Origin: Candidatus Latescibacterota bacterium
GTDB lineage: Bacteria > Latescibacterota > UBA2968 > GCA-2709665
DNA length: 64,000 bases
Direction of reading: 5' to 3'
Assembly: GCA_965205485.1 (NCBI GenBank)
Contig: OZ242180.1
Span: forward strand, 923,016 to 987,015
The notes below the pieces were generated by a model. It was given only the letters and a program-made list of their open reading frames with translations. It had not been told where the DNA came from and did no database searches. The translations under genes and the position numbers were made by a program. This document shows, in pieces, positions 30,012 to 64,000 of the stretch; position 1 is the first letter of the stretch; each line of letters starts with the position of its first letter.

Positions 30012-31997
30012 CTACCACCAGTGCACCTGGTGTCCCTGCCCGGGAAACCAGATGGCATCGACGGTAAAGGCCAACACAACGCCCGCCGTGTATCCCACCA
30101 GCAGACCCAGGAACAAGGGCTTGGACCGGCGGTAGAGGGCGACACCGCCTACACGCATGACAACCGCTTTGGCAGCCCACGCCATGAATACCGGCATCGC
30201 CAGGCTGTATACGTTGTCCGCGGCGGCCACGGCCAGCCCGATGGGGTGGATCGGCCACCAGGAAAAGCGATACCGCAGGAACGTGAGTACCGCCATCAGA
30301 CCCGCGCCGATCCCGAAGAACAACACCCGGCTCAACTCGGGCGCACCCGGCGTACGCATCTGTCCCAGGGTGGTGGAGAAGACCGCCTTGGGATTCCCGT
30401 TGAAGAACAGCCGGGAGAAGTTGTAGGCGCCGTGCGTATGGCCCAGATGAAGCGTAAACCAGATTGATGAGACGAGCCCCGCGAAGACGCCCACCGTGAC
30501 GCACAACAGCAGGAGGCGCCGGTTTCCGCGGATCCGGTCCGCCAGGCGCACGGCCTGCGCCAGCCCGGGCGTGAAGAGTCCCCGCATATAGTCGATCAGC
30601 GCGTAGGAAAGCGCGATGGACGTCAGACACGCGCCGGAGAGTCCGTAGGTGCCCCGCAGGTCCATCACGAAGGCCTGCGGCGTCACCGTACCCTGCGCGT
30701 ACGCCACACCGGCCTCGGACACGACCCGGGCCAGTCCGATATAGATGATGCCCAGCGCGAACAGGAACATCGCCGCCGAAATCGCGTCCATGCCGGATCG
30801 ATGGAGCCAGAACAGCGTGAAAATTACGCTCAGCAGCAGGCCCAGGACCGATGCCCGGTACGACAGGACCTCCCTGCCGTCGTCCAGCGGATGGTCCGGC
30901 CGCAGCGCCTTGAGGAACACTCCCCTCAGGTGGGTTCGGGCGACCCACAGGCGCCACGCGACGAGGCATGCAAGCGCGCCGAAGCACTGCCACGCCTCGG
31001 TGGGCGGATCCGCGCTGAAGGTATCCGTGGACCGTTCGATCTGGTACCCGAGCCGGTTGAAGATGCCCCCCTCAACCACGTGTACCAGGAAGAAGAACCA
31101 GATGCTGAACAGCACCTGCAGGTTGGCGAAATACGCGAACCCGATGGTGTAGAACTGCAGGGGCTGGATATAGACGCCTGGAGAGTAGCGCGTAAAGCGG
31201 AAGTAGCCCGCGTGGGGAAAGAACCGGATGCCGGGCATCCCGTGGAAGAACCAGGATGTGGCGTGCCAGGCGAACAGCGCAAATGCGAATACGGCGCCGA
31301 ACCAGAAGAGCCGGCCCTTCATGAAGTCCGGTAGCGTACTCCGGGACGACGCGCCTTCCGCCATTTCCATCGGCACGGCGGCAAGAGGATAGACCAGCTT
31401 CTCGTTTTCGGCCCACTGTCGTCGCAGAATGACCATCGCGCAGGCCGAACCGACCAGGAGCGCCGCGACCAGGCTGCCCCACCACGCCAGGGGCGCGAGC
31501 CACGCATTCCAGGCATCGACCCCGGCCGCGCCGCCTTCGAAGAACGCCCGAAGCGCATCTCTGTCTGACGGGACCATCCATGCCTGAAGATGCGGGTGGT
31601 AGTATTCCGCCCACCCGTTCTCCGGCGTTGCGAAGTAGATCGGGCTGCCGATCACCCCCACCAGGAACCCGGTGACACCGGACGTCGGCACCACCGAGCC
31701 CACCATCCCGATCGCCGCCACCGTCAACAGCTCGGAAGGCGACAGAACTGCGCGCGGCCTGATCCGCCGGAGCAGCGGGTTCACGCCGCCCACCAGGGCG
31801 ATGAAAATGCTCAGCAGCGTCAGCTGAAAGAAACTCAGGTTGAGCCGGGAGGAGCGTACGACTGTCTCCGCGTAGGTCACCCAGAGGTTGATCGCGACCA
31901 CGGCCAGCACGCCGATGAACACTGCCCGGAGGGTGATCCCTTCTTTTGACCTCGAGTGCTGCTCAACCGAAAGGGATTTCTCTCCGGATCGATCCAT
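30012..31997 (-). CDS. large polytopic membrane protein of unknown family (M3)
   Basis: 661 aa. Block YFATPENGWAEYYHPHLQAWMVPSD. C-terminus FPGQGHQVHWW. Paralogue of M1 and M2. Confidence 0.7.
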   Translation of the reverse strand: MDRSGEKSLSVEQHSRSKEGITLRAVFIGVLAVVAINLWVTYAETVVRSSRLNLSFFQLTLLSIFIALVGGVNPLLRRIRPRAVLSPSELLTVAAIGMVGSVVPTSGVTGFLVGVIGSPIYFATPENGWAEYYHPHLQAWMVPSDRDALRAFFEGGAAGVDAWNAWLAPLAWWGSLVAALLVGSACAMVILRRQWAENEKLVYPLAAVPMEMAEGASSRSTLPDFMKGRLFWFGAVFAFALFAWHATSWFFHGMPGIRFFPHAGYFRFTRYSPGVYIQPLQFYTIGFAYFANLQVLFSIWFFFLVHVVEGGIFNRLGYQIERSTDTFSADPPTEAWQCFGALACLVAWRLWVARTHLRGVFLKALRPDHPLDDGREVLSYRASVLGLLLSVIFTLFWLHRSGMDAISAAMFLFALGIIYIGLARVVSEAGVAYAQGTVTPQAFVMDLRGTYGLSGACLTSIALSYALIDYMRGLFTPGLAQAVRLADRIRGNRRLLLLCVTVGVFAGLVSSIWFTLHLGHTHGAYNFSRLFFNGNPKAVFSTTLGQMRTPGAPELSRVLFFGIGAGLMAVLTFLRYRFSWWPIHPIGLAVAAADNVYSLAMPVFMAWAAKAVVMRVGGVALYRRSKPLFLGLLVGYTAGVVLAFTVDAIWFPGQGHQVHWW

Positions 31998-38800: not shown

Positions 38801-39186
38801 ACCGACGCGGCGCCCGCGGCGTCGCTGTACCCCGCGTGGATGACGTTGCAGCCGGTTCCGAAAGGGTTGCAGAGCGTCCGAAGTTCGAATCCCCCCGGGC
38901 CCGGATACCACAGGTCCGTCGCGCTAAGGAACCGGAAGTAGAGTTCGCGCACGCAACGGCTGTCCGCCAGATTGCCGACGACGATTACCGGGCGGTCAGC
39001 CGCCGTCAGCGCGTCGCCGGGCGGATCATCCAGAAGCTCGGCGTGAGCGTTTATATCCCGCAACGCCCGGTGGATGCGCCGGGCCGCCGTCCGGCCATGT
39101 CCGGACCGGGGCGCCGCCACCAGGACGCCATTCGGGCCGCGAAGAGGCGTTTCCGGTTCCAGCGGACGCGGACGTTCGATTTTCAT
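35845..39186 (-). CDS. giant paralogue 2: heparinase II/III-like core with a C-terminal beta-propeller, no signal peptide
   Basis: 1113 aa. N-terminal block RPVIVVGNLADSRCVRELYFRFLSATDLWYPGPGGFELRT. Central motif LLIDGLGGGSHSYDDAGGI. Intact frame. Confidence 0.8.
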   Translation of the reverse strand: MKIERPRPLEPETPLRGPNGVLVAAPRSGHGRTAARRIHRALRDINAHAELLDDPPGDALTAADRPVIVVGNLADSRCVRELYFRFLSATDLWYPGPGGFELRTLCNPFGTGCNVIHAGYSDAAGAASVTDAFSSRLDDPIPHFAVLDVTRLPLSSREAAQVRAEPLLPAAWQIANTMQGDLKGYLYYLTGDPELGEEYRRAWEAVVESGYVKSEKIVQAHLYSLSRLQPWRLVEHMDLFSEEERLAITRFIYGWAESAEGWHHVGRCPRVVSMHVPRQNHELIPALALACAAAYFRTHFPELTGPERWEEVARRAYAPYGPSWKPLCDGLCHGWWMSQPVMVEYGLNDPSHGYFEQGGARQAADAALAVVNNEGWLPSAGDSDLNRQFPGPSLRTAAAYFDDGRYRFVHDLAPPERRLVNLTSLPRAFDAGTAPKVPDDRVGVTVVPVDPLLYHAWERDPQGAPGVVTTPPSAPIERCFDKLSVRTGWEPDDDFLLIDGLGGGSHSYDDAGGILDYARLGLSLIVQEDSFVHSAPEHMSAVTVVLDGESGEIPGFAILEANETDADGKVYLRIRLKDYAGADWVREVHLLPESCVVFNDTVIANQAGDYAVEARFRTPARLDLDGCEARCERRSPSAGDVTFRIENPCEAVSLAVVEEPVHLRYKDPRDQELWKERYHTDDVVLSTFVARRAVRLDPGEGVRLTHVAQACGPGESPVHLRESGDDISLIQCETSRRLDVLPVRLSSKMRFTVDGRSEQTGANRVFDAGDRIRAMRPLCDGSLVVGTEGGLVTLLDPARGPVWSVDLDGPVYDIGAAEGEATILAVGHGASRLTGLDIRGRRIWQTDIEREPCPWPWWELPTPAPVQVEGGMFDGAAFFAVGCGDIQIRGFDGAGRERWRQRYNEGVPGRIRVADVNGCGEPEIVVGGEVLSDTSKCRILDPRGNFQAHLDVEGWTSILTALAFHETAGRHFLGCGANRGRNLHIFELDAGGEWERRWVKRLGGRVTGIRFLGSDQRVIAGTSQGFLICYNPDGSPLRHRLFEQGIRHLAPFGNETLVIDDQGQLSAVAGTGNVRTLGGLPGPCAIAEPSGTATLMACGSEVWRVAAGPGKAL

Positions 39187-39336: not shown

Positions 39337-42300
39337 TTATGCGACATATTCCACCACGCCGTCGCGCCTGCCCACCAGCAGCCCGCCCCCGGGAAACGCA
39401 GCCGCCGCAGTGATGGCATTCCCGCCACTCGACCAGCCAACCTCGCCGCTGCCGTCCAGGCCCACCGTCCTTCCATCTCCAAGCGCCACCAGGCAACCGC
39501 CTCCCTCTCCCGGCGACAGGCCGAACACCGGCGCTGCCAGAAAACGATGCCACAGCCTATCGCCACCAGTTTCGAAACACTGTACGTAACCGTTCGAGGC
39601 GCCCGCGAATATGCGCCCTTCAGCATACGCCACTGACAGCACGGCGCCGCCCGCGTCCGCATCCCACAACACCTCGCCGTCCCCGCCATAGACGATCAAC
39701 TGTCTGTGATTCGTATCGACGCCGCTGAGCACTTCGTCGACGCCATCTCCGTTCAGGTCCGCCGCGCGAAGACACTTCGACCACGAGGGGATTGACCAGC
39801 TCATGATATCGGGCCGCGAGAGCGTCTTCACGCACGCGCCCCTGGCATCGAACACACGGACGCACCCGTGAATCGACGGGTCCGCCATCCCCGCGAGCAC
39901 GTGAAGGCCGTCCCCGTCACGCAGCCGCGCCACCGCGAGGCAGGTAGGCGGACCCCACTGGCAGGCGGAACGCCACAACAGCGCGCCGCCCTCATCGAAC
40001 GCGTAAACGTGACGGTCGGCGCAGCCGGCCAGGATCTCGTCTCTGCCGTCGCCGTCGATATCTCCGGACGCCAGGCTCAGGACTTTGCAGTTCAGCCACG
40101 TCCAGTAGTCCCAGTTCATCGGCTGCCACTCGAGTTGATGCGTCCACACCTCCTGTCCCGATGCGTCCAGCCGGCGCACGGCTTCGCCATCCCCGCCGGC
40201 GACCACCCCGCCGTCGGCAAGGGCGAGAACCGTTCGTACGCGTCCTGACAGACGATGGGTCCATCGCCTTTCACCGTTTCGGTCGAACGCCGTAACGCCG
40301 CCGTCATCGTCGCCCGCGAAGCAGCCCCCTTCCCACACGTCCATCGCCGTAACCGGTGCGCCGCACGATCCTCGCCAGGCCGGCTTCGCGTCACCTTTTT
40401 CGGCGACGAACGGTCCCGCATCGGAGCCGTCCAGGGCGGCGCCCCACGTGGGAAGGACCGCCGCGTCTTCGCCAATCCTGACTTCGTCGCACCCGGCTGA
40501 AAGGGAGACCGTGGCGACCGTCCCCTCGCCTTCAACCCGATAGCCGGACGCTTCGGCAGACATCGCAAACGTCCTTGCTGCGTCCCTTCGTCGCTCCAGA
40601 ACAGGGTGGCCAATCTCACCCCTTCATCGGGCTTGAGGGATTTCAGCGAGCGCTGCGCCCACCGCGTTCCACCTTCTGCCAGAGCCGACGTCACCGGGGC
40701 AAGTTCCCGGGCGCCGCTACCCGAATGCCGCATCTCCAGCCGGGCATCTTCCTGGATTGCTCGAAGCCCCCCGTCGGAGGATTCCACGTCCCCATACACG
40801 TGCCAGCGACACTCGATCAGGTACTCGCCTTCGGCCTTCGCCCGGACTTCGTCGATGACCATAAACCAACCGTCCCGGCTGTTCACGATATGGCGATTCC
40901 AGTCCGCCTGGCCGGGATACCCCATCGACGTCCCCGCGGCGGAGAGTCGGTCTCCCTCCGAGACGTATCGCAGGGCCGCATACCGGGACTCGCAGCCGGG
41001 CCCCGCGCCGTCAACCGCGACGCTCACCCCGTTGTGGTCCCGGATCGATGCCGGACCCACGCGACCCCCGAACCAGTTCTTTCCGCGTCCGGTGTACCGG
41101 ACGATACAGTTTCCGTCCTGATAGGAATGGGAGCCTCCCGAGATACCGCAAAGCAGCAGATAGTCGTCGTCATCCGTCCATCCGGAACGGAAGTAGACCT
41201 TGTCGAACGTCTGTTCGAAAGGCACGTCACGCAGGTAAACACCCTCCGGCGCGAATCCACCGATGTCCTCCAGAGAATCGTAGAACAACCTTGAAAGCGG
41301 AGCCACGCCCACACGGCCCATCCGCTCCGGCGTTGCGGCGCCTCGTCCCGTCACCCAGGTCCGGAACGGCTCCACGTTCGCACGAACAGCCTTCCCGGCC
41401 AGGCCGCCCTCGTCCGACGTTCCGCAAAGCTGCAGGTATTCGTCGTTTCCCGTCACGGCCGCGGCCATCAACATGTACTGTTGCGGCCCGCCTTCGAGAT
41501 TGCTGTGTGCGACCAGCGCCCTGTCCACGCCCTCCAGATAGGGTTTGCTGGTAAAGTAGTCCGTCTTTCCGGAAGCCAATGCATAGTCGGCGGTATTGAA
41601 GAGTGAAAACGACCACTGGTGCCCCCACGAATCGCACACGGGCTTGTTCGACGTCATCTGCGGCGCGAAGAACACCTCCGCCAGTTTCATCCATGCCCGC
41701 CCTTCAGCCAACCCGTGCACCTGGTGGAAATACCGGCCACCATAAAACAGATCGAGACCGGACATGGTCTGATGGTTCTGCCGCACGCGGTCCACACCCA
41801 CGTGGTTGAGGAATCCGGCATTACCGGCGCCTTCCGTGGACCGGTACAGCCCCAGGAATGCTTCAAGCGTCTCCTCCCGCTGGTCTCCGGGAAGGCCCGG
41901 ATGATTCTCGAGAACGGTGAACGGCAGCAGCATGGTCCTCAGGAACCCGTGAATCTGCGGCGGATCGGGCAGGTGGCGTTCGAACCACCGCGTGCGCGCG
42001 AAGTTGCGGACCTGCCGGCAGAACATCGGGATGAGTTCCTCCAGGCCGGTCTGCACCGCCAGCATCCCGATTTCGGAAATGGCCCACATGTAGGTCCAGT
42101 CCCCCGGTCCGCTCGTAAACTCCCGCTCCAAAGCCTCGTCGCCCTGGTTCAGCCGCTCCTGTGCAGGCTTCAGGTACAGGTCGGCCCATCTCCCCAGGTT
42201 CACGTGGTACTGAAATGGAAGTTCCGCACCCGACACCCGGATCGTACGGGAAAGCGCTCCTGCCGCATCCTCGACGTCATCCGCCTGGCTTACTCCCACA

Positions 42301-42629
42301 ACGATCACGTGCCCCGCGTCTTCCAGAGAATCCGGTGCCGTGCGGATTACCCAGCCGCCGGGCCCGGGCCAGATCCGGTCCGTCAGATCGTATGCGCGGA
42401 AGTACATCGTCCTCACAAACGCGCTGTTCATCATGTTTCCCAGCGCGATCACGTGGCGTCCGCCCGCGTCGAGGAGCGCGTCGGGCAGGATCTCCACGCC
42501 GGCCGAAAGCACATCCTTCAGGGCGGATTGAAGACGCTTCGCCGCGGCCTGATACGGCTCGGAATCGGGCGCCGAAATACAGACGCCGGCAGCGAGATCC
42601 GTCTCGTGAACGGGTTTGCGGAAGTTCAT
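39337..42629 (-). pseudogene. giant paralogue 3, frameshifted near 40575-40582
   Basis: The N-terminal ORF (42629 down to about 40580) ends at ...VRLATLFWSDEGTQQ and then becomes garbage. The propeller part continues in the ORF 39337-40563 (ARTFAMSAEASGYRVEGEG...). One missing base restores colinearity with paralogues 4 and 5. Confidence 0.7.
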
Positions 42630-42711: not shown

Positions 42712-45700
42712 CTACCGGTAGCATTCCAGCGCGCCATCGTTCCGTCCCACCAGCAGGCCGCCGTCCGGCCACGCGGATGCCCAGCCAGCCGCCGTTGCGT
42801 CCGGATTCCCGGTGTGCGTCGTACGAATCTCTCCCGATCCGCCCAGACCGACGACCGTTCCGCCTCCCAGGGCCGCCAGAGACCCACCATCTCCACGCGG
42901 GGCCAGCCCGACCACCGGTTCGGCCAGAAACCGGCTCCACAGGCGTGTGCCGTCCGCCGCGAAACACTGCGCAAATCCGTTGGATGCGCCCGCGTACACC
43001 CGACCCTCACTGGCGTTGACCGACACGACAGCACCACCGACGTCCGCATCCCACAACACCTTCCCATCCCTGCGATACACGATCAACTGACGGTGGTTGG
43101 TATCCACGCCACTGAGCACCTCCTCCCATCCATCCCCGTCCACGTCGCCACGTCGACGCACTTCGACCACGACGGAATCGACCAGCTCATGATATCCGGC
43201 CGCGACAGCGTCTGCTCACACGCCCCGTCCGATTCGAATACCCGGATACATCCGTGAATCGACGGGTCCGCCATCCCCGCCAGCACCTGACGTCGGTCCC
43301 CTTGCCGCAGCCGCGCCACCGCCAGGCACGTGGGCGGACCCCACTGGCAGGCGGAACGCCACAACAGATTGCCCTCGTCGTCAAACGCGTAGACGTGGCG
43401 GTCCGCGCATCCGGCCAGAATCTCGTCTTTCCCGTCGCCGTCGATATCGCCGGCCGCCAGGCTGAGGACTTTACAGTTCAGCCACGTCCAGTAGTCCCAG
43501 TTCATCGGTTGCCACTCGAGTTGACAGGACCATACCTCGCGGCCCGACCCGTCCAGCCGGTGTACGGCTTCCGCCTCCCCGCCAGCCACGACCCCGCCGT
43601 CTGCAAGGGCGAGTATCGTGCGTATGCCTCCGGATATTGAATGGGTCCATCGTATCCCGCCGTTCAGGTCGAACGCCGTGATGGCTCCGCTGTCGTCGCC
43701 CGCGAAGCAGCCCCCCTCCCATGCATCGACCGACGCCACCCTTCCGCCGCATGTGCCGCTCCACACCGGCTTCGACTCGCCCCCTGCGATGACAAACGGC
43801 CCCGGCTCGGTTGCTTCGACGATGCGGCCGGCCATTGGAAGTACGACTGCATCGGCTACCAGGTTCACGCCCTCGCTTTCCGCCGCGAACGAGACCGTCA
43901 CCGCCCTGCCCTGCCCCTCGATACGATAGCCGGACCCCTCCGGTTCAAGCGTATACGAACGAGCCTGCTCCAGATCGTCGCTCCAGAAAAGAGTAGCGTA
44001 CCGCATCCCTTCGCCCGGCTGAAGCGGCTTCAATGAGCGCTGGATCCAACGCATGCCGCCCTTTTCCAGGGCTGCTGTCACCGGTATCAGGTCCTGCGAC
44101 GCGCAGCCCGCGTGCCGCATATTCAGTGTCGCATTACCCTGAACCGAGCGCAGGGACCCATCCGACAGCGTTACGTCTCCGAGCACGTGCCAGCGGCCCT
44201 CAACCAGGAATTCACCTGCCACCTGCGCCTGGACCTCGTCCACCACGAGAAACCACCCCGCCTTGCCGTATACGATATGGCGATACCAGTCGCCCTGACC
44301 GGGATATCGCATCGAAGTGCCCGCCACCGAAAACGCCTCACCCTCCTCCACGTATTTCAAGGTGGCGTATCGGGACTCACGTCCCGGGCCCGCTCCGTCC
44401 ACTGCGATGTTCACTCCGTTGTGGTCGCGCACCGAGGCCGGACCCACGCGATCTCCGAACCAGTTCCGTCCCCGCGCCGTATACCGCACAATGCAGTTGC
44501 CGTCCTGATACGAATGAGACCCGCCCGATATGCCGTCCAACAGCAGATAGTCGTCGTCGTCCGACCATCCGGACCGGAAGAAGACCTTATCGAATGCCTG
44601 CTCGAACGGCACGTCGCGCAGGTACACGCCCTCGGGCGCAAACCCGCTGGAACCCTCGAGCGAATCGTAGAACAGCCGCGAGAGCGGCGCCACGCCCACC
44701 CGTCCCAGCCTCTCCGGCGCTATCGCCCGGCGTCCCGTCACCCATGATCGAAGCGGCTCTTCCGGTCCCTTTATGGATCGTCCGGCCAGGGCATCTTCGT
44801 CAGAGACGCCGCAGGGGTGCAGGTATTCATCGTTCCCCGTGGCCGTCGCGGCCATCAGAAAGTACTGCTGCGGGCCTCGTTCCAGGTTGCTGTGCGCAAT
44901 CAGCGCCCTGTCCACACCCTCCAGGAACGGTTTGCTCGAAACGTAATCCGAGCGCCCCGACGCCAGCGCAAAATCCGCAGTGTTGAACAGTGAAGCGGCC
45001 CACTGATGGCCCCACGAGTCGCACACCGGCTTGTTGGACGTCATCTGCGGCGCAAAAAAGACCTCCGCAAGCTTCATCCACGCCCTGCCCTCGGCCAACC
45101 CATGCACCTGGTGGAAATACCGTCCCCCATAAAAGAGGTCAAGCGCCGACCGGGTCTGGTGGTTCTGCCGAACCCTGTTCACGCCGACGTGGCTCAGAAA
45201 TCCGTTGTTCCCGGCCCCTTCTCCCGATCGGTATAGCGCCAGGAGGGCGTCCAGGGTCTCCTCTCGCATTTCTGTCGGGACGGACGGATGGTTTTCCAGG
45301 ATCGTGAACGGAAGCAGCATGGTCCTCAGGAACCCGTGAATCTGCGGAGGGTCCGGCAGATGGCGCTCAAACCACCGCGTACGCGCAAATTGGCAGACCT
45401 GCCTGCAGAACATCTCCATCAACGCTTCATCCCCGGTCCGGACCGCCAGCATCCCGATGTCTCCGATCGCGCGCATATAGGTCCAGTCGCCCGCCCCGCT
45501 GGTATATTCCCGCTCCAGGTGGGCGTCGCCGGCCTCCAGCCGCTCCCGCGCCGGCCTCAGATACAGATCCGACCACCTCCCCGGCTGCACGCGGTACTGG
45601 AACGGTAGCGTGATACCCGTCTCGGCGATGGTGTTGCTGAGGGCATCCGCCGCCCCGGTAACGTCCTCCGCGCTGCTCACGCCCACGACCACCACGTGAC

Positions 45701-46016
45701 CTACCTCGTCCAGGGAGTGCGGCGCGGTACGGACCGCCCACCCGCCGGGGCCCGGCCAGACCCGGTCCGTCAGATCGAATGCCCGGAAATACAGCGCCTT
45801 CAGGAACGCGCTGTCCATCATGTTCCCAAACGCGATCACATGGCGCCCGCCCGCATCGAGCCGCGCGTCCGGCAGGATTTCAACGCTATCCGAAAGCGCA
45901 CCGTGCAGGGCCGCCTGAAGCCGCTTCGCAGCGGCCTGATACGGCTCGTCACCGGGCGACGAAATACAGACGCCGCCAGTGAGATCCGTCGCGTGAACAG
46001 GTTTGCGGAATGTCAT
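42712..46016 (-). pseudogene. giant paralogue 4, frameshifted near 43145-43150
   Basis: The main ORF 43083-46016 ends at ...SWSKCVDVATWTGMDG. The tail (VEVRRRGDVDGDGWEEVLSGVDTNHRQLIVY...) is in the ORF 42712-43170. Adding one G (GCGAC to GCGGAC) gives CVDVADVDGDGWEEV, which matches paralogue 5. Confidence 0.7.
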
Positions 46017-46268: not shown

Positions 46269-48245
46269 GTGTCGCAAAGGATTCGCAGTGTCATGATGGT
46301 CGCACTTGCCGCAGGTCTTGCATGGAGTTGCGGCCGCGAACGCGTTTTGGAGTCTTCCGGGTCGGATGACCGGATTGGCCGCGCGCTGAGCAAGGTGGCG
46401 GCAGCGGGCGATGGTCGTGCATCTGGGGCGCTGGTGGAGGCGTCTGTGTCGCGAGATGGCGCGCCCGCGGCACATGTGATGGTCGAATTTGCGCGTTCCA
46501 TTGCCGGGCGGAAGCCGGACTATCGGTGGTCGGGAACGACCGATGCCAAGGGGCGCGTTACAGTGGAGATATCCAGTCCGGCGACGGGTTATTTTCAAGC
46601 GCGCGCGTCTCAGGATGGCGCCGTGACGGGCCACTGGTCCAGCATCCCGGTCAATGATGGTTACAGGACATTGGTCGCGTTGCCCGTTGGCGGAAAGGCG
46701 CGGGTGGCGCGATCATCCAGGATAGGTGTGATTGCCATCGGTCTTGTTCCGCATCTGAGCGGTGTGTTCAGTTCGCCCCGTCCGCCAATGAGAAACGCGT
46801 CTGAAATGGCTCTTGAAGAGATCAATAACGCGCACGGTGAGCCGAGATTCGAGTTCATCATTGAAGATAGCCGCAGCACGATAGATGGTGCCGTTGAGGC
46901 TTTTAAGAAGCTGATTCATCGAGATGGCGTCCTCGCCATTCTCGGTCCTCGTACTTCAAGTCAGGCCGTGGCGGCCTTTCCCATCGCGCAAGAAAACCGT
47001 GTTGTGGCACTCGGTCCGACTTCTGCCGCACGAGGTATCAGTGAGATGGGGGACTTTCTCTTTCGCGCGAGTCTCACCGTAGATCGGTACGTGCCCGGCG
47101 GCATCGAGAAGACGCGGGAGGCGCTCGGCTACAAGCAGGTGGCGACGATATTCGATGACGCGGATGTTTTTTCCCGAAGCAGCGACGAGGTCATTCGGAA
47201 CGCGCTCACGGAAGGCGGCGTTGACATTGTGACGACAGAGACTTTCCAGACCGCCGATGCCGATGTTTCCGCGCAACTGACTCGGATAAAAGCGTTGAAT
47301 CCGGATGCCGTCTTTATTTCTTCTCAAGCTGTAGACATGGCTGATATTCTGATTCAGGGACGGCAAGTCGGTATTCCTGCCGAGGTTCCCTTTATCACGT
47401 CTTCGGTGCTGACGTTAGACGGCATAAAGCGTGCAGGCGTCGCTGCCGAGGGTGTTATTGCGTTTACGGCCTGGAGCAGCATGGCCGATACACCTGGTAA
47501 TCGCGCCTTCGTCGAGAATTATACGTCAAGATACGGGGTTGAACCCAATGTGATTGCCGCACAATCCTACGCCAGTGTTTATATCTTGACGCAAGCAATT
47601 TCAGATGCCCGCTCTGCATCGGGATCTGAGACTCCGGAATCCGAAAATATTCGGGATGCGTTGCGCAATGTTCGGAATTTCGACACGGTGCTGGGTCCGT
47701 TTTCTTTCGATAACGTTGGCGACGGGGTCTACAACCCGACGGTATTGACTGTCAAGAACGGCGCACTTGCTGTTTTCGATCCAACGCCTGCCGCGGTTGC
47801 GACCGCGATAATCGGCGAGACGAATGACAGCGGTTTGACCGGAAAAGCGACTTTCGCACAGTTCGGCGATAATATCAAACTGGTCGTCTCGCTGGCGAAT
47901 GCGTCCGCAGGCGAACACGCCGTCCATATCCATGCAAAGGGCGATTGCAGTGCGTCAGACGGGACATCGGCCGGCGGGCATTGGAATCCCACGGGCGTAG
48001 CGCACGGCAAATGGGGAGAAGGTGAATTTCACCTCGGCGACATCGGCAATGCGAGCGTCGATGACCAGGGCACAGGAAGTATTGAATTGACGACGAATCT
48101 CTGGGAGATCAATACGGGTTCAGCAATTGATATCGTTGGCAAGGCGATCGTCGTCCATGCGCGCGCTGATGATTTCGTCTCGCAACCTTCGGGCAATGCC
48201 GGCGCGCGTATCGGTTGCGGTGTGATTGTGTTGGACCAGCAATAG
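46269..48245 (+). CDS. secreted three-domain fusion: leader, a carboxypeptidase-regulatory-like beta-sandwich, a LivK-type periplasmic binding domain (PBP1), and a C-terminal Cu,Zn superoxide dismutase
   Basis: GTG start with an AAGGAGAG Shine-Dalgarno. PBP1 blocks IGVIAIGLVPHLSGVFSSP...ALEEINNAHG...LAILGPRTSSQAVA. SodC signatures HAVHIHAKGDC, GGHWNP, HLGDIGN, AIVVHARADD, GNAGARIGCGVI. Confidence 0.8.
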   Translation: MSQRIRSVMMVALAAGLAWSCGRERVLESSGSDDRIGRALSKVAAAGDGRASGALVEASVSRDGAPAAHVMVEFARSIAGRKPDYRWSGTTDAKGRVTVEISSPATGYFQARASQDGAVTGHWSSIPVNDGYRTLVALPVGGKARVARSSRIGVIAIGLVPHLSGVFSSPRPPMRNASEMALEEINNAHGEPRFEFIIEDSRSTIDGAVEAFKKLIHRDGVLAILGPRTSSQAVAAFPIAQENRVVALGPTSAARGISEMGDFLFRASLTVDRYVPGGIEKTREALGYKQVATIFDDADVFSRSSDEVIRNALTEGGVDIVTTETFQTADADVSAQLTRIKALNPDAVFISSQAVDMADILIQGRQVGIPAEVPFITSSVLTLDGIKRAGVAAEGVIAFTAWSSMADTPGNRAFVENYTSRYGVEPNVIAAQSYASVYILTQAISDARSASGSETPESENIRDALRNVRNFDTVLGPFSFDNVGDGVYNPTVLTVKNGALAVFDPTPAAVATAIIGETNDSGLTGKATFAQFGDNIKLVVSLANASAGEHAVHIHAKGDCSASDGTSAGGHWNPTGVAHGKWGEGEFHLGDIGNASVDDQGTGSIELTTNLWEINTGSAIDIVGKAIVVHARADDFVSQPSGNAGARIGCGVIVLDQQ

Positions 48246-48323
48246 GAGGTCGAGTCTGACAACCTTGATTCGTCACTTCTTCCGGGACGCAAAGTCGAAT
48301 ACAGGCAAGCGGATAGAGGCGAT

Positions 48324-48364
48324 TTGACGTCGGATTGCCAGGAAACTTCAGGTGACTTGACGTG
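48324..48364. promoter_or_regulatory. second pair of TTGACGT(C) motifs
   Basis: GATTTGACGTCGG and GACTTGACGTGAA lie in the convergent gap between the SOD fusion and giant paralogue 5. They resemble the pair at 35555-35595. Confidence 0.25.
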
Positions 48365-48452
48365 AACGGAAGATACATCCTTCCGGACGACCTTTTCGGC
48401 CCGTTCTGGATGGATTCCCGGCGGCGCGGCGTTGCTTTTTCTGGAATTGCGT

Positions 48453-51400
48453 CTAACGGAAGAGTTCGAGCGCGCCGTCCTTTCGGCCCACCAGCAGGCC
48501 GCCTTCCGGCCATCCGGATGGCCATCCGTAACCGTCACTTCCGAATCCCCTGCGTCCGTCGTCCGGATCTCTCCCGAGCCGTCGAGGCTCACCACGCGCC
48601 CGCCTCTCAGTGCCGCCAGGCATCCTCCATCTCCCGCGGGCGCCAGACCGGCCACGGGCTCGACGAGAAGCCGTCGCCACAAGCGGCTGCCGGCGGCGTC
48701 GAAGCACTGCACGAAACCGTTGGACGCCCCGGCATACAGGCGCCCATCGTGGACCTCCGCGGCGAGCACGGCCGCGCCCATATCTGCGTCCCAGATCACC
48801 TCGCCGTCCCGCCCGTAGACGATCAACTGCCGGTGATTGGTATCCACCCCGCTGATCACCTCGTCCCGGCCGTCCCCGTCCACGTCCGCTACGCGCAGGC
48901 AGCGCGACCAGGAGGGAATCGACCAGTTGACAATATCCGGGCGCCGAAGGGGCTTCCCGAGCGTTCCGTCCTTCGCGAAGACCAGCGTGTGCGCGTGAAT
49001 GGCCGGGTCCGCCAGGCCGGCGAGCGTCTGACGCTCCGGACCATCCTCCAACCGCACGGTATCCAGACACACCGGCGGTCCCCACTGGCAGGGGGAACGC
49101 CATAGTTGGCTGCCGGCGGCGTCGAGCGCGTAGACATGACGGTCCGCGCATCCGACCAGTATCTCTTCACGTCCGTCGCCGTCGATATCGCCCGCCGCGA
49201 GGCTCAATACCACGCAGTTCTTCCTGGACCAGCTATCCCAGTTCATGGGCTGCCATTCGATCCGATAGGACCAGACGGTTTCGCCCGTTGCATCCAGCCT
49301 GTACACGGTCTCTTCGTCCCCTCCCGCTGCGGCGCCCCCATCGGCCAGGGCAGCAAGCGCCCGTACGCCGCCTTCGATCTCCCGTTTCCAGAGAACGTCG
49401 CCGTCGGAGTTGAACGCGGTCACTCCGCCGTCGTCGCCCGCGAATCCTCTATCCTTCCCGATATCCAGCGCCCTCACGGCATCCGCGCACCGCGTTCGCC
49501 AGACGGGTTTCGCCTCGCCGCCGGCGATCTGAAATGGCGAGGAATCGGTCGCTTCCACAGCCCGACCGGCCGTGGGCAGCGTTGCGCCGGATGCAGAGAC
49601 CTCCGGGGTTTCAGCGGTTTCCATGAGTGCAACCGTGACGGGCTCGCGGCCCCCCTCGATTCGAAAACCAGTCTTCTGTTCGACCAGCCTGAAATCCCTG
49701 CCATCGCCGACCGCGTCGGTCCAGAAAAGCGTCGCCATCCGGGTCCCCGTTCCCGGCCGGAGCGCCGCCAGGGAACGTTGGACCCACCGCGAGTGGTCTT
49801 CCGCGCACCAATAGTCCGAAGGGACAAGCTCCTGGCATCCGCTCCCCGCGTGCCGCATGTTCAACTGCGCGTCACCCTGAACCGACTGCAACAGGCCGTC
49901 TGAAAGGGACGCTTCACCCAGGAGGTGCCACCGGCACTCCACGAGAAACTCTCCCGCGACCACGGGCCAGACCTCGTCGATCACCAGAAACCATCCTTCA
50001 CGGCTGTACACGATATGCCGGTACCAGTCGCCCTGCTCAGGATAGGTCATCGACGTGCCCGCCACGGCAAGGTTCTCCCCTTCATGCAGGTACCGCAGCG
50101 CCACGTACCTGGACTCGCACCCCGGGCCGGCGCCGTCTACGGACACGCTCACGCCCGTGTAGTCCCGGACCGTCGCCGGCTGGTGGCCTCCGGCAAACCT
50201 GAACCAGGAGGCGCCGCGGCTGGTGTAACGCACGATGCAGTTGCCGTCCTGATAGGAGTGCGAGCCCCCCGAGATCCCGTCCAGCAGAAGATAGTCGTCC
50301 TGGTCCGTCCATCCGGAACGGAAGAACACCTTGTCGAACGTCTGTTCGTAGGGCAGATTCCTCAGATAGACGCCGTTTACCGGCGCAAACGTCGTGTATT
50401 CTTCGAGAGAGTCGTAGAACAACCGCGACAGGGGGGCCACACCGACCCGGCCCAACCGTTCCGGCACCGCCGCCGGCCGCCCCGTCACCCAGGTCCGCAG
50501 GGGCTCTTCGGCGCCTCGAATGGTCCGTTCCGCCGCCGCGCCTTCGTCAATGGATTCACAAAGCTGCAGGTATTCGTCATTGCCCGTTACCGCCGCGGCC
50601 ATACGGCAGTATTGTTCGGGGCCTCGTTCCAGGTTGCTGTGCGCCATGAGCGCACGGTCCACGCCCTCCAGGTAGGGCGGGCTCGAAAAGTAGTCCATCT
50701 TCCCTGCCGCCAGCGCGTAGTCCGCCGTGTTGAACAGCGAGGCCCCCCATTGATGGCCCCACGAGTCGCACACCGGCTTGTTCGATCCCATCTGCGGCGC
50801 AAAGAAGACCTCCGCCAGCTTCATCCACGCCAACCCCTCCGCGAGCCCGTGTACCTGGTGGAAATACCGGCCTCCGTAAAACAGATCGAGCGCGGAACGG
50901 GTCTGATGGTTCTGGCGCACCCGGTCCACGCCCACGCAACTGAGCAGCCCCGAATTGCCGGCACCCTCCGCGGACCTGAAGAGTCCCAGCAGCGCTTCGA
51001 GCGTCTCCTCCCGCTGTTCGGCGGGAAGCGAGGGATGGTTTTCAAGAATCGTGAACGGCAGCAGAAGCACGCGGATGAACCCGTGGATCAACGTGGGGTC
51101 CTCCAGCGTCCGCTCGAACCAGCGCGTACGGGCGAAGTGGCGGATCTGATGGCAGAACATCGACATCAACCTGTCGTTTCCCGTCTGCACCGCGAGCATC
51201 CCGATATCGGCGATAACCATCATATAGGTCCAGTCACCCGATCCTCCGCCGATGGATTCCTGCTCGATGTCCCGGTTGCTCTTGGCCAGCAACTCTTGCG
51301 CCGGCTCCACGTACAGATCGGACCATGTGCCCGGATGTACCTGGTATTGGAACGGCAGTACGGGACCGTTTTCAGTCTATCGCACCGGCCAGCGCCCCGG

Positions 51401-59632: not shown

Positions 59633-60717
59633 GGACGCTCACGCTGAACCGACTCGCGGTGCGCCGCGCGGTACCGTGGGTCCTGTGGTTGGGAGTCGCG
59701 GCCTGCGCAACAGGGTCGGCTTCCGCGCGCGACACGGGTGGAAGGTATCCAGTCCGCATCGAGCGCACCGTGTTCCTCATGGGCACGTACGCCACCTTCG
59801 TGGCTGAGACCGAGGATCGTCAGACCGGTCTGGCGAAGCTGGAACGTATGGTCCGCGTCATCGAGGACACCGAAGCTGAGCTCAGCACCTGGCGGGACGA
59901 CAGCGTCCTCAGTGCCGTGAATGGACAGCCTGTGGGAACACCCCTGCCTGTCCCGGCCGCCATCTGCGGGCTCTTCTCCCGCATTGCAAAGTGGCATGCG
60001 GCCACGGACGGCGCGTTCGATCCGGCCGTAGGCAACCTCATCAAGGCGTGGGATCTGCGCGGAGAAGGCAGGGAACCGGATGACGGCGAGGCGCTGGCGG
60101 CGCTGGCCGCTTCAGGCTTCGACAAGCTCGTACTCGATGCCGAGACGTGCGCCGTCACGCGGCGCGCAGCGGTCATTCTGGACGCGGGCGGATTCGGCAA
60201 GGGCGAGGCGCTGGATCGGGTCCGAGAGGCCGAGCGCAACCGGCGCGGCGCATGGTTCATCGATTTCGGCGGGCAGGTGGCAGTGTCCGGCGAAGCGTCC
60301 GATGGCCCGTGGTCAGTCGGGCTTGCACATCCGGCGCAACGCCAAAAGGCGGTTCTCGAGTTATCTCTCGCCGCCGGCTCAATCGCCACAAGCAGCGGGT
60401 CCGATAGGGACCCCGCCACGGCGGACGGCCGCCGCATCGGCCATATCGTCGACCCGCGCAACGGCCGGCCGGTCTACCGAACCGGGTCGGTCACCGTCTG
60501 GCACGAAAACGCATTCGTTGCGGACGTGCTCTCGACGGCGCTGTACGTCATGGGAAAGAAAGAGGGGATCGCCTGGGCCGTGCCGCGCGGCATCGCCGCG
60601 TGCTTCTTTTCCGCTGCCCCGCACGCGGACGATGTCGTGTTCCGCGCCACACCTGCATTCACGGCGCGTTTCCCACTGTCCGATTCACCGCCGGGAGAAG
60701 AAGAAACGAAGGATTGA
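59629..60717 (+). CDS. apbE: FAD:protein FMN transferase
   Basis: Lipoprotein-like leader. ApbE blocks DAGGFGKGEA and SIATSSGSDRD. Start at MRTLTL, 4 nt overlapping the upstream stop. Confidence 0.8.
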   Translation: MRTLTLNRLAVRRAVPWVLWLGVAACATGSASARDTGGRYPVRIERTVFLMGTYATFVAETEDRQTGLAKLERMVRVIEDTEAELSTWRDDSVLSAVNGQPVGTPLPVPAAICGLFSRIAKWHAATDGAFDPAVGNLIKAWDLRGEGREPDDGEALAALAASGFDKLVLDAETCAVTRRAAVILDAGGFGKGEALDRVREAERNRRGAWFIDFGGQVAVSGEASDGPWSVGLAHPAQRQKAVLELSLAAGSIATSSGSDRDPATADGRRIGHIVDPRNGRPVYRTGSVTVWHENAFVADVLSTALYVMGKKEGIAWAVPRGIAACFFSAAPHADDVVFRATPAFTARFPLSDSPPGEEETKD

Positions 60718-60875
60718 GGTCGGGAAAGTTACACATGGCTACACGGATCGGCGCCTCGCGAATTCAACGCACGCCGATTTATCTTGTACTGTGGCGGGCG
60801 CCGTGTTTTTGACTTACATTTCAAAATGGAAGCCTGTCCGGACTCCGGTTGCCGCGCCACCGGCCAGATGACTGA

Positions 60876-61925
60876 ATGAACGCACTCGGGAGCAATTCGA
60901 TGCCGGTCAATCTCTCAAGAGACCTGAAACACAAACAAGACGGTTTCGGCGCCGAGCGAAACATCCACGAATACGAAAAAGGCTTCAGGGTGGCCAGGGA
61001 CGCCGTCGCTGAGAATGAAGACAGCGACGACAGGATGGTCAGCGTTCTGTACTACGATCTGGTTACTGACTTCTACGAATACGGTTGGGGCAGATCATTT
61101 CACTTTGCCCCGCGTGTCCCTGGAGAAAGCTTCGAGGCATCGCTTGTACGCCACGAACGCTATCTGGCGCGGGTACTCGGCCTTGAACCCGGGATGGTCG
61201 TCGCCGACGTGGGCTGCGGCGTCGGGGGCCCGCTAATGGAGATCGCGCGATATTCCGGCGCCAGGATCGTCGGCGTGAACAGCAACGCCTATCAACTCGA
61301 ACGCGCCCGGGAACGTACGGTAGAAGCGGGGCTGACGCACCTGGTCGAGTTCCTGCAGTGCGACTTCCTGAACGTGGATGCCGCGGACGAGTCGTTCGAC
61401 GCCGTATACGATATCGAAGCGACCTGCCATGCGCCGGATAAACTCAGCATCTATAGCGAGATCTTTCGTCTTTTAAAACCTGGCGGACGCTTCGGCGGTT
61501 ACCAATACTGCCTGACCGATCGCTTCGACGCCAACGATCCCCAGCATCTCAGGATCAAGGCCGACATCCAGCTGGGTGGCAGCCTGTTCGTGATCGACGA
61601 CACGCACACGGTCGATCAAGCGCTTCGATCTGTTGGCTTTGAGGTACTGGAAGCACGGGATCTTTCGATCCAGAATGGGCCGTCCATCCCCTGGTTTCAA
61701 CCTCTGATCGGTTCCGGTCTTTCTCTGACCGGCTTCCGCAGATCGAGGATCGGGCGCTGGGTCACGCGGAACTCGCTGAGATCGCTCGAAGCGCTACATA
61801 TCGCGCCACGGGGATCGGCCCGCGTAGCAGCAACTCTGGACCTCTGCGCGGAGGCCCTGGCCGAGGCCGGCCGGCTCGGGATCTTCACGCCGATGTACCT
61901 CGTTCACGCCCGCAAACCAGCGTAA
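60876..61925 (+). CDS. sterol 24-C-methyltransferase (ERG6/SMT)-like SAM-dependent methyltransferase
   Basis: SMT region I YEYGWGRSFHF, SAM motif VADVGCGVGGP, region III YDIEATCHAP, plus KPGG and FTPMYLVHARKP. Near-colinear with yeast ERG6 over about 300 aa. Confidence 0.8.
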   Translation: MNALGSNSMPVNLSRDLKHKQDGFGAERNIHEYEKGFRVARDAVAENEDSDDRMVSVLYYDLVTDFYEYGWGRSFHFAPRVPGESFEASLVRHERYLARVLGLEPGMVVADVGCGVGGPLMEIARYSGARIVGVNSNAYQLERARERTVEAGLTHLVEFLQCDFLNVDAADESFDAVYDIEATCHAPDKLSIYSEIFRLLKPGGRFGGYQYCLTDRFDANDPQHLRIKADIQLGGSLFVIDDTHTVDQALRSVGFEVLEARDLSIQNGPSIPWFQPLIGSGLSLTGFRRSRIGRWVTRNSLRSLEALHIAPRGSARVAATLDLCAEALAEAGRLGIFTPMYLVHARKPA

Positions 61926-61959
61926 AGCAATCCAATCGAGCTTGTTCACATCCTGCCAA

Positions 61960-64000
61960 CTATCTGACGGCGGGCATGAAATCCTGTGAGGCCTGGAACT
62001 CCCCCGCGCCGGGGATGGCTTTGGGTTGAACGGTATATTTCCCCCTGGGAACCACGAAAAAAGCGGTGTTCCTGCGCGCGTCGACCCGGGCGTTGTACCG
62101 GACAATACCGTCCCTGTTGCGGATACTCCAGTCGCCCGGCGCCAGGCCGGTCAGCAATAACTGACAGCTTCCATCCCCACCGACCCCCACCTGCAGCGTC
62201 TGCTCCAGCGGCTTGCCGGTCCGGTTCAAGACCACGACCCGGTCCGCCAGCGTGACAACGAAGGCTTCCGGGAGTTCAACGAGGTCGACCGGCAGCTGCT
62301 CCTCCTGTTCGTCACACATCGTCATCACCGTCAGAAACACATCGTTGCTCCGCTCTTCCACGGGTGAGAACATCACGCGATGGCCGTTCGCTTCAGGACG
62401 GTCCGGTTTTGGCGGCGTAAAGTACTGTCCGAACACGCTATTGGCGTCATTTCCGCTCAGGATCTGCGTATCCCGCTCATCCGCCCCCGGTCGCAGCATT
62501 CGCAGCACGACCTTGCCGCTCCCGTCAGCGTCGCTGTTTCTCAGGATAACGCCGTCGTCCGTCGTTTCGGGCGGGTTGAGGGTGTTGACCTGCCAGTATT
62601 TCCTGAACTCCGGTCTGGCCGTGGTCATATTGTCCAGGACGATCAGCGCCGCGGCAGTCTGCTCGTTGTCGAGGTTCAGGAAGCAGAAGGTCCGGACGTA
62701 GTCCTCGATCTTCTCGCTGTAGGCCGACGTCAGATTGACCGAGAAATAGCTGTAGAACGGCCGCTGAGGGGACGGGCCAAAGCTGGTCGAGACGACGCCA
62801 CCGTTGGCGAACGTCGGATCAGAAAGCGCCTGGTCCGGTGTGGTCGGGCAGGATTGAATGAAACGCACGCCCCCGTCATTGACGGTATTCCGAATGAACT
62901 GCTCTTCAGGATCGACCGCCAGCATCATGCTGTGCGAAATCGAACGTTTACAGAAGTTGAAGTCGTAGGGCGTTCCGTAGAAATGGTACTGCCCCAGGTC
63001 GGCCGCCTGCAGCCCGCGGTAGTAGATCTGGAAGCTGCCCGCGTCGGCGTGCTGGTGATTGCCGAAGTGATACCCGCCGCCCTTCATCTCCACGACCACG
63101 TCGGACGCGCCGGGGCCCATGTTCCATCCGGTCCGGGCGACCATCGAACCGAGGATCGGGCCGAAATCGATGGTGAGCGGCAATGAAGAGAAATCCTCGG
63201 CAGCCTTCAAGTCCGGGTCGTTCAGCAGCAGCACCATGATCGGTTCGGAGGGAAGCCCGCCCTGCCGCTCGAAGTCGTGCTTGATGACCGGATCGTTGCT
63301 GTAGGCGTAGCTGAGCAGTGCTGTAGCGCCGAGACTTGCCGGCCGTCCGTCAGAAAACCCGTCGCCGTCACGTAGCGTCTCTCCGTTCGGCATGCGCATG
63401 TAGAGCCAGAACTTGCAGACATCCGCGATGTTGTCGTCGAAGACCCGCTCGCCGGTCATACGGTTAAACAGCCAGGCCGCGTGCATATCCCATCCGAACC
63501 GGTACGGGCCGTAGCTGACGCCCTGGTTGTGGCGCGGGGACCGGTATTCGAACCGGCGCATCGGAACCAGTTCTTCCAGCATGCGGTAGGCGCAATATCG
63601 ATACGGTACCGGGTCTTCGTCGTAGATGGCGATGGCCATGCAGAGCAGATCGCGGTTGACCTGCGCCTCGTTGCCATGGCCGTTGACGATGATCTGCTTG
63701 AACGGCGGCCAGCCGATTTCCATATCGTCGGCGAGGCGCATCAGGTCGGTGCGAATGCTGTTCCTGTCGCTCGGTGTCATCAACTCGTAGCACCAGTCGT
63801 AAACCAATGCCGCAGAGTAGATGGCCCGGCCGATCTCCCTTGTAATATCAAGCAGATTTCCGAATTCGACCGCGGCGAGATAGTCGCGGATCAGCGCCAC
63901 CGCTTCCCGGCCGGGCGTCTCCTCGCCGTTCATCAGATAAACGAAGGCCCTGGCGACGGCCGCTTTCTCGAGTTTCGGATTGTGGCCGACTTCCGTACCC
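61960..64000 (-). CDS. heparinase II/III-like protein, 5'-truncated at the window end
   Basis: Motif GGGYHFGNHQHADAGSFQIYYRG. The reading frame stays open to nt 64000. Confidence 0.75.
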   Translation of the reverse strand, partial: GTEVGHNPKLEKAAVARAFVYLMNGEETPGREAVALIRDYLAAVEFGNLLDITREIGRAIYSAALVYDWCYELMTPSDRNSIRTDLMRLADDMEIGWPPFKQIIVNGHGNEAQVNRDLLCMAIAIYDEDPVPYRYCAYRMLEELVPMRRFEYRSPRHNQGVSYGPYRFGWDMHAAWLFNRMTGERVFDDNIADVCKFWLYMRMPNGETLRDGDGFSDGRPASLGATALLSYAYSNDPVIKHDFERQGGLPSEPIMVLLLNDPDLKAAEDFSSLPLTIDFGPILGSMVARTGWNMGPGASDVVVEMKGGGYHFGNHQHADAGSFQIYYRGLQAADLGQYHFYGTPYDFNFCKRSISHSMMLAVDPEEQFIRNTVNDGGVRFIQSCPTTPDQALSDPTFANGGVVSTSFGPSPQRPFYSYFSVNLTSAYSEKIEDYVRTFCFLNLDNEQTAAALIVLDNMTTARPEFRKYWQVNTLNPPETTDDGVILRNSDADGSGKVVLRMLRPGADERDTQILSGNDANSVFGQYFTPPKPDRPEANGHRVMFSPVEERSNDVFLTVMTMCDEQEEQLPVDLVELPEAFVVTLADRVVVLNRTGKPLEQTLQVGVGGDGSCQLLLTGLAPGDWSIRNRDGIVRYNARVDARRNTAFFVVPRGKYTVQPKAIPGAGEFQASQDFMPAVR

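Follow-up and report, generated by a model that had tools for sequence, protein, structure and literature searches.

An intact ERG6/SMT-family sterol methyltransferase gene of a sponge-associated bacterium, with no linked sterol pathway genes in 64 kb

We analysed a gene for a sterol C-24 methyltransferase homologue (sterol methyltransferase, SMT; ERG6/SMT family) in a 64,000 nt stretch of contig OZ242180.1 (assembly GCA_965205485.1, Candidatus Latescibacterota bacterium, positions 923,016 to 987,015 of the forward strand). This whole stretch of 64 kb is referred to as the window. An earlier note on the window, made from the sequence alone, had described an open reading frame (ORF) with the motif YEYGWGRSFHF as a eukaryote-like SMT homologue. 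The ORF is present exactly as described, and its start is probably located further downstream. The features of the gene are:

60876–61925, plus strand: mechanical ORF of 349 aa from an upstream ATG, containing YEYGWGRSFHF
60876–60899, plus strand: eight extra in-frame codons, probably untranslated, which contain the Shine-Dalgarno sequence of the downstream ATG
60888–60892, plus strand: GGGAG, Shine-Dalgarno-like, 7 nt 5′ of the ATG at 60900 (direct reading)
60900–61925, plus strand: SMT coding sequence, probable true frame, 341 aa plus TAA stop (Pfam, homologue lengths, Erg6 match)
61068–61106, plus strand: Region I, sterol-binding signature DFYEYGWGRSFHF (alignment with Erg6)
61074–61076 and 61080–61082, plus strand: codons for Tyr81 and Tyr83 (Erg6 numbering), inside Region I
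61200–61232, plus strand: Region II, VADVGCGVGGP, S-adenosylmethionine (SAM)-binding; Erg6 D125, G127, G129, G132 and P133 are all kept
61407–61436, plus strand: Region III, YDIEATCHAP, with Erg6 E195
61470–61490, plus strand: Region IV, LLKPGGR
61578–61580, plus strand: Gly227, corresponding to Erg6 position 249 (MAFFT alignment)
61725–61919, plus strand: Sterol_MT_C (PF08498), residues 284–348 in the 349 aa numbering (Pfam)

The SMT gene and its product

Translation most likely starts at the ATG at 60900 (Met9 of the longer frame), since GGGAG lies 7 nt upstream of it, nearly all homologues have 341 aa, and the 341 aa product is on record. By exact look-up, precisely this product was found in the databases on a contig of 5,125,460 bp, while the 349 aa version is unrecorded; the gene content of the window is bacterial. 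Pfam assigns Sterol_MT_C to the C-terminus with 80.9 bits (cutoff 21.7; E = 7e-23), covering 65 of the 66 profile positions, and class-I SAM methyltransferase domains to residues 104–206 (Methyltransf_11, E = 1.7e-20). No NCBIfam model matched the protein at its cutoff, the best match being far below.

The protein aligns colinearly with yeast Erg6 (NP_013706.1, BLASTP) across 297 residues, at 45% identity and with two small gaps (E = 2e-92). The similarity is well above chance level and bears out the near-colinearity proposed in the earlier note, and the blocks of Regions II and III that were named there are also present. Saccharomyces cerevisiae Erg6, a zymosterol C-24 methyltransferase, shares Regions I–IV, Tyr81 and Tyr83 with the window SMT. 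It differs in length (383 versus 341 aa, the window protein being shorter at both ends) and in having Asp249 and Tyr243 in place of Gly and Ala. Brown and Welander (2025, bioRxiv 10.64898/2025.12.19.695621) listed 25 residues, in Erg6 numbering, that are common to every SMT found active. A MAFFT alignment with Erg6 revealed that all 25 are kept in the window protein, as they are in Erg6 itself. The residue register of our alignment agrees with that of Brown and Welander, since it reproduces the Region III proline insertion of the SMT from contig LXNI01016685, an enzyme that they report as inactive (bioRxiv 10.64898/2025.12.19.695621). The ratio of nonsynonymous to synonymous substitution rates (dN/dS) was 0.18–0.29 in comparison to three relatives, indicating purifying selection; values for the neighbouring ApbE gene were left out of this comparison because they came from a start in the wrong frame.

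Structure prediction is in agreement with an intact protein. With a diverse alignment of 86 sequences as input, AlphaFold returned a model with a pLDDT (predicted local distance difference test) of 90.9 and a pTM (predicted template modelling score) of 0.89, showing an intact Rossmann methyltransferase fold and a helical C-terminal domain. A model based on 31 close homologues only reached a pLDDT of 41.5 and was discarded. Searches of the PDB by sequence, family profile or fold retrieved no true SMT structure, only generic methyltransferases, and the best sequence match was MitM (E = 6e-21), which is much weaker than the matches to named SMTs. The nearest solved folds are TleD, geranyl-diphosphate C-methyltransferase, RebM, AtmM and MitM. 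They have the class-I Rossmann fold in common with the window SMT (query-normalised TM-score 0.56–0.66), but are only 18–26% identical to it and lack both Sterol_MT_C and Region I. Among these, TleD and geranyl-diphosphate C-methyltransferase act on an isoprenoid C=C bond, which they methylate via a carbocation.

By its domains, Regions I–IV, conserved residues and placement with tested bacterial SMTs (see below), the gene is confirmed at the sequence level as an intact sterol side-chain methyltransferase gene of the ERG6/SMT family in a sponge-associated bacterium.

Relatives, predicted products and allele variation

A homology search of a large protein database gave 3,657 matches, and the best 120 were all 66–95% identical to the window SMT. 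In a search of bacterial genomes with one genome per species, the best 80 loci were examined. The top match (98% identity) is found in the metagenome-assembled genome (MAG) RHO2_bin_5, labelled Gemmatimonadota (locus L001), followed by two Latescibacterota chromosomes with 85% (L002) and 74% (L004). The 80 loci comprise 51 from Chloroflexota/Dehalococcoidia, 18 from Acidimicrobiia (including Ca. Poriferisocius), three from Binatia, two each from Latescibacterota, Ca. Multivorans (Acidobacteriota) and unclassified MAGs, and one each from Gemmatimonadota and Rhodospirillaceae. In RefSeq, members of the clade to which the window SMT belongs (see below) already carry the name sterol methyltransferase. 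Among the best matches in JGI/GenBank metagenomes are LXNJ01000389 (62%) and LXNI01016685 (56%). These are contigs from the sponges Petrosia ficiformis and Sarcotragus foetidus, respectively, and their SMTs were assayed by Brown et al. (PMC10070321; bioRxiv 10.64898/2025.12.19.695621). The sponge origin is documented for these two contigs, and for the MAGs it is deduced from isolate or genus names.

Public labels conflict for the closest relatives (Gemmatimonadota for L001, Ca. Latescibacterota for L002 and L004). Shared synteny of the SMT locus and 85–96% DNA identity argue that L001, L002, L004 and the window belong to one lineage.

A neighbour-joining tree was calculated from 156 sequences (332 columns, 200 bootstraps). 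It contains SMT-family sequences only, so that its scope is placement within this family and the exclusion of other families lies outside it. The earlier note had proposed a phylogeny against eukaryotic and bacterial SMTs as a check, and in our tree the window SMT falls into a clade of 34 members with a bootstrap support of 1.00. The clade consists of sponge-associated sequences only, and phyla are intermixed, with labels including Gemmatimonadota, Latescibacterota, Dehalococcoidia, Acidimicrobiia, Binatia, Acidobacteriota and Rhodospirillaceae. Clustering at 50% identity collapsed the whole group to one full-length representative (63% identity), with all others at 52% or less. Erg6 is located in a separate clade (support 0.97–0.99). 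The backbone of the tree is without resolution, as is that of the SMT tree of Brown et al. 2023 (PMC10070321). Identities of 57–85% across at least six phyla within the sponge clade fit the horizontal transfer of sterol genes among sponge symbionts that was proposed by Kelly et al. 2022 (PMC9531527).

Named representatives just beyond the sponge clade are a rice SMT1-like protein (P0153; 49% identity by phmmer), a Ca. Dadabacteria SMT (47%) and a chytrid SMT (46%). The window SMT is thus about equally close to eukaryotic SMTs and to other bacterial SMT clades, and in this sense the term eukaryote-like holds. The rice protein represents plant SMT1 (cycloartenol C-24 methyltransferase) and has the highest identity among the named eukaryotes found. 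It has the same architecture as the window SMT, with Asn instead of Gly at position 249, and the deep branching order is not settled by the tree.

The earlier note had also regarded bacterial sterol methylation as rare. This part does not stand: as the number of close matches illustrates, SMTs are abundant in sponge symbionts, and enrichment of SMT1/ERG6 in sponge-symbiont MAGs has already been published (Kelly et al. 2022, PMC9531527). Twenty of 24 metagenomic SMTs methylated desmosterol (8 of 10 from sponge symbionts and 12 of 14 environmental ones), 24-methylenecholesterol was also methylated in vitro by bacterial SMTs, and three SMTs propylate (Brown et al. 2023, PMC10070321). The window SMT joins this described and biochemically tested class, and its identity is no surprise. 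Neither Brown et al. 2023 nor Brown and Welander 2025 mentions the Gemmatimonadota/Latescibacterota sub-clade, and we found nothing relevant in the literature on Latescibacterota sterol metabolism, Poriferisocius or Hopanoidivorans. The SMT ORFs on the two assayed contigs (LXNJ01000389 and LXNI01016685) fall into the same fully supported clade as the window SMT, which has the architecture of the characterised sponge-symbiont SMTs, with Gly249, Ala243 and 25 of 25 residues.

Published residue rules allow a prediction of the products. A small residue at position 249 permits a second methylation, and all four known propylating SMTs have Phe at position 81 and/or 83 (bioRxiv 10.64898/2025.12.19.695621). 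The window SMT has Gly249, Ala243, Tyr81 and Tyr83 (Erg6 numbering). It therefore shares Gly249 with the propylating SMTs but has Tyr at both positions where the propylating Aplysina enzymes differ. Gly249 is also present in 116 of the 120 closest homologues. From these residues we predict that the window SMT is active and forms C28 products, possibly C29 because of the small Gly249, and probably not C30, since Tyr instead of Phe at 81 and 83 makes 24-isopropyl products unlikely. Only 4 of 11 non-functional SMTs kept all conserved residues (bioRxiv 10.64898/2025.12.19.695621), so that the complete set of 25 gives a high prior for activity in vitro.

Some observations weigh against this prediction. 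The SMTs assayed by Brown et al. reach at most 62% identity to the window SMT, and none comes from the Gemmatimonadota/Latescibacterota sub-clade. Among ten additional sponge-metagenome SMTs with Gly249, four were active in vitro (bioRxiv 10.64898/2025.12.19.695621). Furthermore, the LXNJ01000389 ORF compared here has Ser133; it may differ from the assayed protein, or be inactive.

We also compared positions 60400–62000 of the window to positions 9500–11100 of L004 (a 5.18 Mb Latescibacterota chromosome). At the DNA level, identity is 94–99% for the genes that precede SMT and 88–95% for HepII_C, the gene downstream. Over the SMT promoter region and the first 200 nt of the gene, DNA identity is about 60%, and it is 69–85% over much of the remaining gene. 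The two SMT proteins are 74% identical. For SMT we obtained dS = 0.54, dN = 0.157 and dN/dS = 0.29, versus dS = 0.07–0.29 and dN = 0.017–0.07 for the flanks. Compared to L001, SMT is less diverged than its flanks. The island of divergence between the window and L004 points, with moderate confidence, to allele replacement by recombination rather than to relaxed constraint; the confidence is only moderate because divergence tapers off gradually at the right-hand edge of the island and recombination has made a mosaic of the entire region.

The two alleles differ in Region I, at precisely those positions that govern how many methyl groups are added, with DFYEYGWG (Tyr81/Tyr83) in the window versus DFFEFGWG (Phe81/Phe83) in L004, and both have Gly249 and 25 of 25 residues. 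Among 281 clade sequences, YEY occurs 219 times, FEY 35 times, FEF 16 times and YEF 10 times. Residues of the L004 type fit the criteria of Brown and Welander for the "most promising candidate" for 24-isopropyl synthesis (bioRxiv 10.64898/2025.12.19.695621), and by these criteria the L004 allele is such a candidate. With the window and L004 alleles, the published residue rules could be tested on a pair that occurs naturally. It is conceivable, but in our view unlikely, that SMT alleles at a fixed locus are swapped by recombination and thereby set the number of carbons added (C28/C29 versus 24-isopropyl C30), with which the bacteria may remodel host sterols. If this were true, the allele content of symbionts would help to determine unusual sponge sterol profiles and the 24-isopropylcholestane "sponge biomarker". 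Steranes with alkylated side chains, 24-isopropylcholestane among them, serve as fossil evidence for early animals. The presence of SMTs in bacterial sponge symbionts complicates this reading of the fossil record (Brown et al. 2023, PMC10070321). The gene described here adds a lineage labelled Gemmatimonadota or Latescibacterota to the bacterial SMT carriers; nothing in our findings on SMT overturns current understanding.

Two further observations concern other members of the family. In the SMT of L046 (Dehalococcoidia chromosome OZ244136.1), Region I is degenerate (ISMNMGGGKSFHF) and only 22 of the 25 conserved residues are present, and this copy may be frameshifted or decaying. Two SMT ORFs within 20 kb are found at seven loci of sponge symbionts, L016, L021, L043, L061, L064, L065 and L069 (Dehalococcoidia and Acidimicrobiia).

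Source of the sterol substrate

We consider it likely, on the grounds of the sequence features described above, that the gene encodes a functional SAM-dependent sterol C-24 methyltransferase that forms a stand-alone unit and acts on a sterol supplied from elsewhere on the chromosome or by the host. By analogy to Erg6 and the tested bacterial SMTs, Region II would bind SAM, and Regions I and III, along with the C-terminal domain, would hold the sterol. The Δ24 double bond in the side chain of a sterol such as desmosterol would attack the SAM methyl group, and the resulting C-25 cation would be resolved by hydride shift and deprotonation, leading to 24-methylene or Δ25(27) C28 sterols. A second methylation to C29 may follow, and a third one to 24-isopropyl would be unlikely. 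The substrate may come from a pathway encoded at other sites of the 5.1 Mb chromosome, or may be drawn from the sterol-rich sponge host. An SMT without a linked sterol pathway bears on the question of sterol synthesis by symbionts versus modification of host sterols.

The earlier note had seen no squalene epoxidase or oxidosqualene cyclase (OSC) in the window. Pfam analysis of about 40 ORFs across it confirmed this, and also retrieved no CYP51, ERG4/24 or Rieske oxygenase. In L001, the 10 kb that follow the window end encode only degradative enzymes and no sterol pathway gene, and none was found within 10 kb on either side of SMT in L002. A motif scan (DCTAE and QW repeats) detected no cyclase within 10 kb of about 85 sponge-clade SMT loci. 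The same scan was positive at four metagenome loci with more distant SMTs, which served as positive controls and whose OSCs are myxobacterial. A long ORF at one locus (L090) is probably an over-extended OSC rather than a fusion of squalene monooxygenase and OSC.

Other members of the sponge clade and of neighbouring clades do adjoin genes for steroid tailoring: P450s, KshA-like Rieske oxygenases, short-chain dehydrogenases/reductases, DUF1295/steroid reductases and ERG4/24, and further 3-beta-hydroxysteroid dehydrogenase (3-beta-HSD), steroid 5-alpha-reductase, SnoaL-like proteins and MMPL transporters that carry sterol-sensing domains. A cyclase is missing from all of these clusters. A recurrent fusion of an N-terminal GPP34 domain (Golgi phosphoprotein 3-like, lipid-binding) to a cytochrome P450, about 650–675 aa long, flanks the SMTs in 11 of the 80 genome loci. 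These form cluster 11, which is represented by L038 and includes Binatia, and the fusion is also found at L163 (Dadabacteria) and L164 (unassigned). It often lies beside ERG4/24, 3-beta-HSD, steroid reductase and MMPL/sterol-sensing genes, without a cyclase. The fusions were mapped to:

L038, 12589–14610: GPP34-P450 fusion
L074, 7772–9796 and 12789–14810: two GPP34-P450 fusions
L163, 12227–14245: GPP34-P450 fusion
L164, 3996–5954 and 7077–9053: two GPP34-P450 fusions

We lean slightly towards a host-derived or other exogenous sterol as the substrate, rather than a self-made one. This view is based on the lack of local pathway genes, the host-glycan-degrading neighbourhood of SMT, the cyclase-free tailoring clusters in related symbionts and a precedent from Chlamydiae. 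The SMT of a Chlamydiae sp. MAG from drinking water was discussed as a case of an SMT without other sterol genes, and a host sterol was proposed as its substrate (Brown et al. 2023, PMC10070321). According to its published description, it resembles the window SMT in being host-associated, in having no other sterol genes nearby and in Gly249. It differs by Phe83, where the window SMT has Tyr83, and in that it propylates, and for the window SMT the absence of sterol genes is known only locally. The same enzyme could also be the last tailoring step of a de novo sterol pathway, with squalene epoxidase, OSC, CYP51, ERG24 and SdmAB encoded elsewhere on the chromosome, and we regard this as quite possible, if somewhat short of even. 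Clusters of ERG24, CYP51 and lanosterol synthase (LSS) occur in 115 of 537 sponge MAGs, and steroid gene clusters are found in 10 sponge-symbiont phyla; Gemmatimonadota are represented in both cases, and SMT and other sterol genes often lie dispersed around the chromosome (Kelly et al., PMC9531527). It therefore means little that such genes are missing from 64–85 kb of a genome of 5.1 Mb, and this weighs against a host sterol. Symbiont SMTs are moreover located inside full clusters in metagenomes of Aplysina, Petrosia and Sarcotragus (Brown et al., PMC10070321), and L165 exemplifies a complete cluster of this kind (SMT, ERG4/24, OSC, squalene epoxidase, P450 and Rieske). The clusters of the Aplysina symbiont, the Sandaracinus MAG and L165 have an SMT from the family of the window SMT next to OSC, squalene epoxidase, CYP51, ERG24 and SdmAB, but the window SMT has no linked sterol gene in 64 kb, and no linkage is seen in any of the four genomes of the lineage. 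The failure to find cyclases at the sponge-clade loci also speaks against a de novo pathway, as do, weakly, the homology searches: with the OSC of L165 as query, the best 120 of 2,200 matches were from Myxococcota, Spirochaetota and Deltaproteobacteria, with the L090 cyclase all 18 matches listed were Polyangia lanosterol synthases, and none of these listed matches was on the three chromosomes of the lineage, which are 5,125,460, 5,453,092 and 5,180,620 bp long.

SMT-like triterpene methyltransferases of Botryococcus braunii methylate non-sterol isoprenoids. An analogous activity of the window enzyme on squalene, a hopanoid or another triterpenoid with a terminal isopropylidene bond would account for the lack of linked sterol genes, and would suit the presence of TleD and geranyl-diphosphate C-methyltransferase among the nearest folds; some residue-intact SMT homologues were also inactive on the two sterols offered (bioRxiv 10.64898/2025.12.19.695621). 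However, Region I and all 25 residues of functional SMTs are intact, most assayed bacterial relatives methylate Δ24 sterols (PMC10070321), and related symbiont SMTs are linked to ERG4/24, 3-beta-HSD, steroid 5-alpha-reductase and KshA-like oxygenases, which makes a non-sterol substrate very improbable. About as improbable, and if anything a little more so, is the reading that the gene was acquired horizontally and is now an inactive relic. The gene is an orphan without pathway context, and several sponge-metagenome SMTs are inactive in vitro (bioRxiv 10.64898/2025.12.19.695621), but the intact frame with its full residue set, the low dN/dS, the confident structure prediction and the conservation of the gene at the same locus in four genomes all argue against this reading.

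Genomic neighbourhood

The window represents a glycan-utilisation region, as judged by Pfam: its ORFs include heparinase II/III-like proteins, sugar ABC transport, UxuA, two PhyH dioxygenases, and five or six giant beta-propeller/FG-GAP proteins resembling lambda-carrageenase. Directly upstream of SMT and on the same strand are a porin-like gene and genes for an FMN_bind protein, a small membrane protein and ApbE (stop at 60717), and 34 bp separate SMT from the convergent HepII_C gene. The features next to SMT and elsewhere in the window are:

60790–60805, plus strand: terminator-like hairpin and T-run between ApbE and SMT (consensus scan, pattern match only)
61960–64000, minus strand: HepII_C (heparinase II-like) gene, convergent, running off the window end (Pfam)
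10453–12432, 27922–29892 and 30012–31997, all minus strand: three paralogous DUF6785+DUF6784 membrane proteins of about 660 aa
16169–19843, 35845–39186, 43083–46016 and 48029–51310, all minus strand: giant secreted-looking proteins with lambda-carrageenase-like beta-propeller, FG-GAP and PQQ_2 repeats
20070–20781, plus strand: toxin-antitoxin pair of MNT-like nucleotidyltransferase and HepT-like RNase, in a patch of low G+C flanked by two large genes for glycan degradation
39337–40563 and 40116–42629, minus strand: two same-strand ORFs in different frames with an overlap of about 450 nt
46269–48245, plus strand: one ORF with Peripla_BP_6 (E = 3e-58) fused to Cu/Zn superoxide dismutase (E = 4e-36)

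Based on the hairpin at 60790–60805 and the convergent HepII_C gene downstream, SMT looks like a transcription unit of its own that is monocistronic. A promoter scan revealed no sigma-70 promoter near SMT, and neither the Rfam nor the tRNA scan of the window gave a match, so that there is no riboswitch. The order PhyH ... SMT, followed by convergent HepII_C and then GFO/IDH/MocA, is common to the window, L001, L002 and L004, and in the latter three SMT is followed by full-length HepII_C orthologues of 934–944 aa. A functional link between SMT and its neighbours (HepII_C, PhyH, ApbE, FMN_bind) was considered and rejected. The synteny is confined to one closely related lineage and is thus explained by common descent, and the ApbE block is absent in L002.

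Among the other genes, the giant beta-propeller paralogues are about 71–72% identical to each other at the DNA level. The overlapping ORFs at 39337–42629 jointly resemble the nearby beta-propeller/FG-GAP paralogues of 977–1113 aa, with an N-terminal part without Pfam match and a C-terminal propeller, and probably represent a frameshifted paralogue or a sequencing error. Two of the DUF6785/DUF6784 paralogues are arranged in tandem beside the solute-binding protein of a sugar ABC transporter. The fusion ORF at 46269–48245 is located in a patch of lower G+C content (0.565 versus about 0.62).

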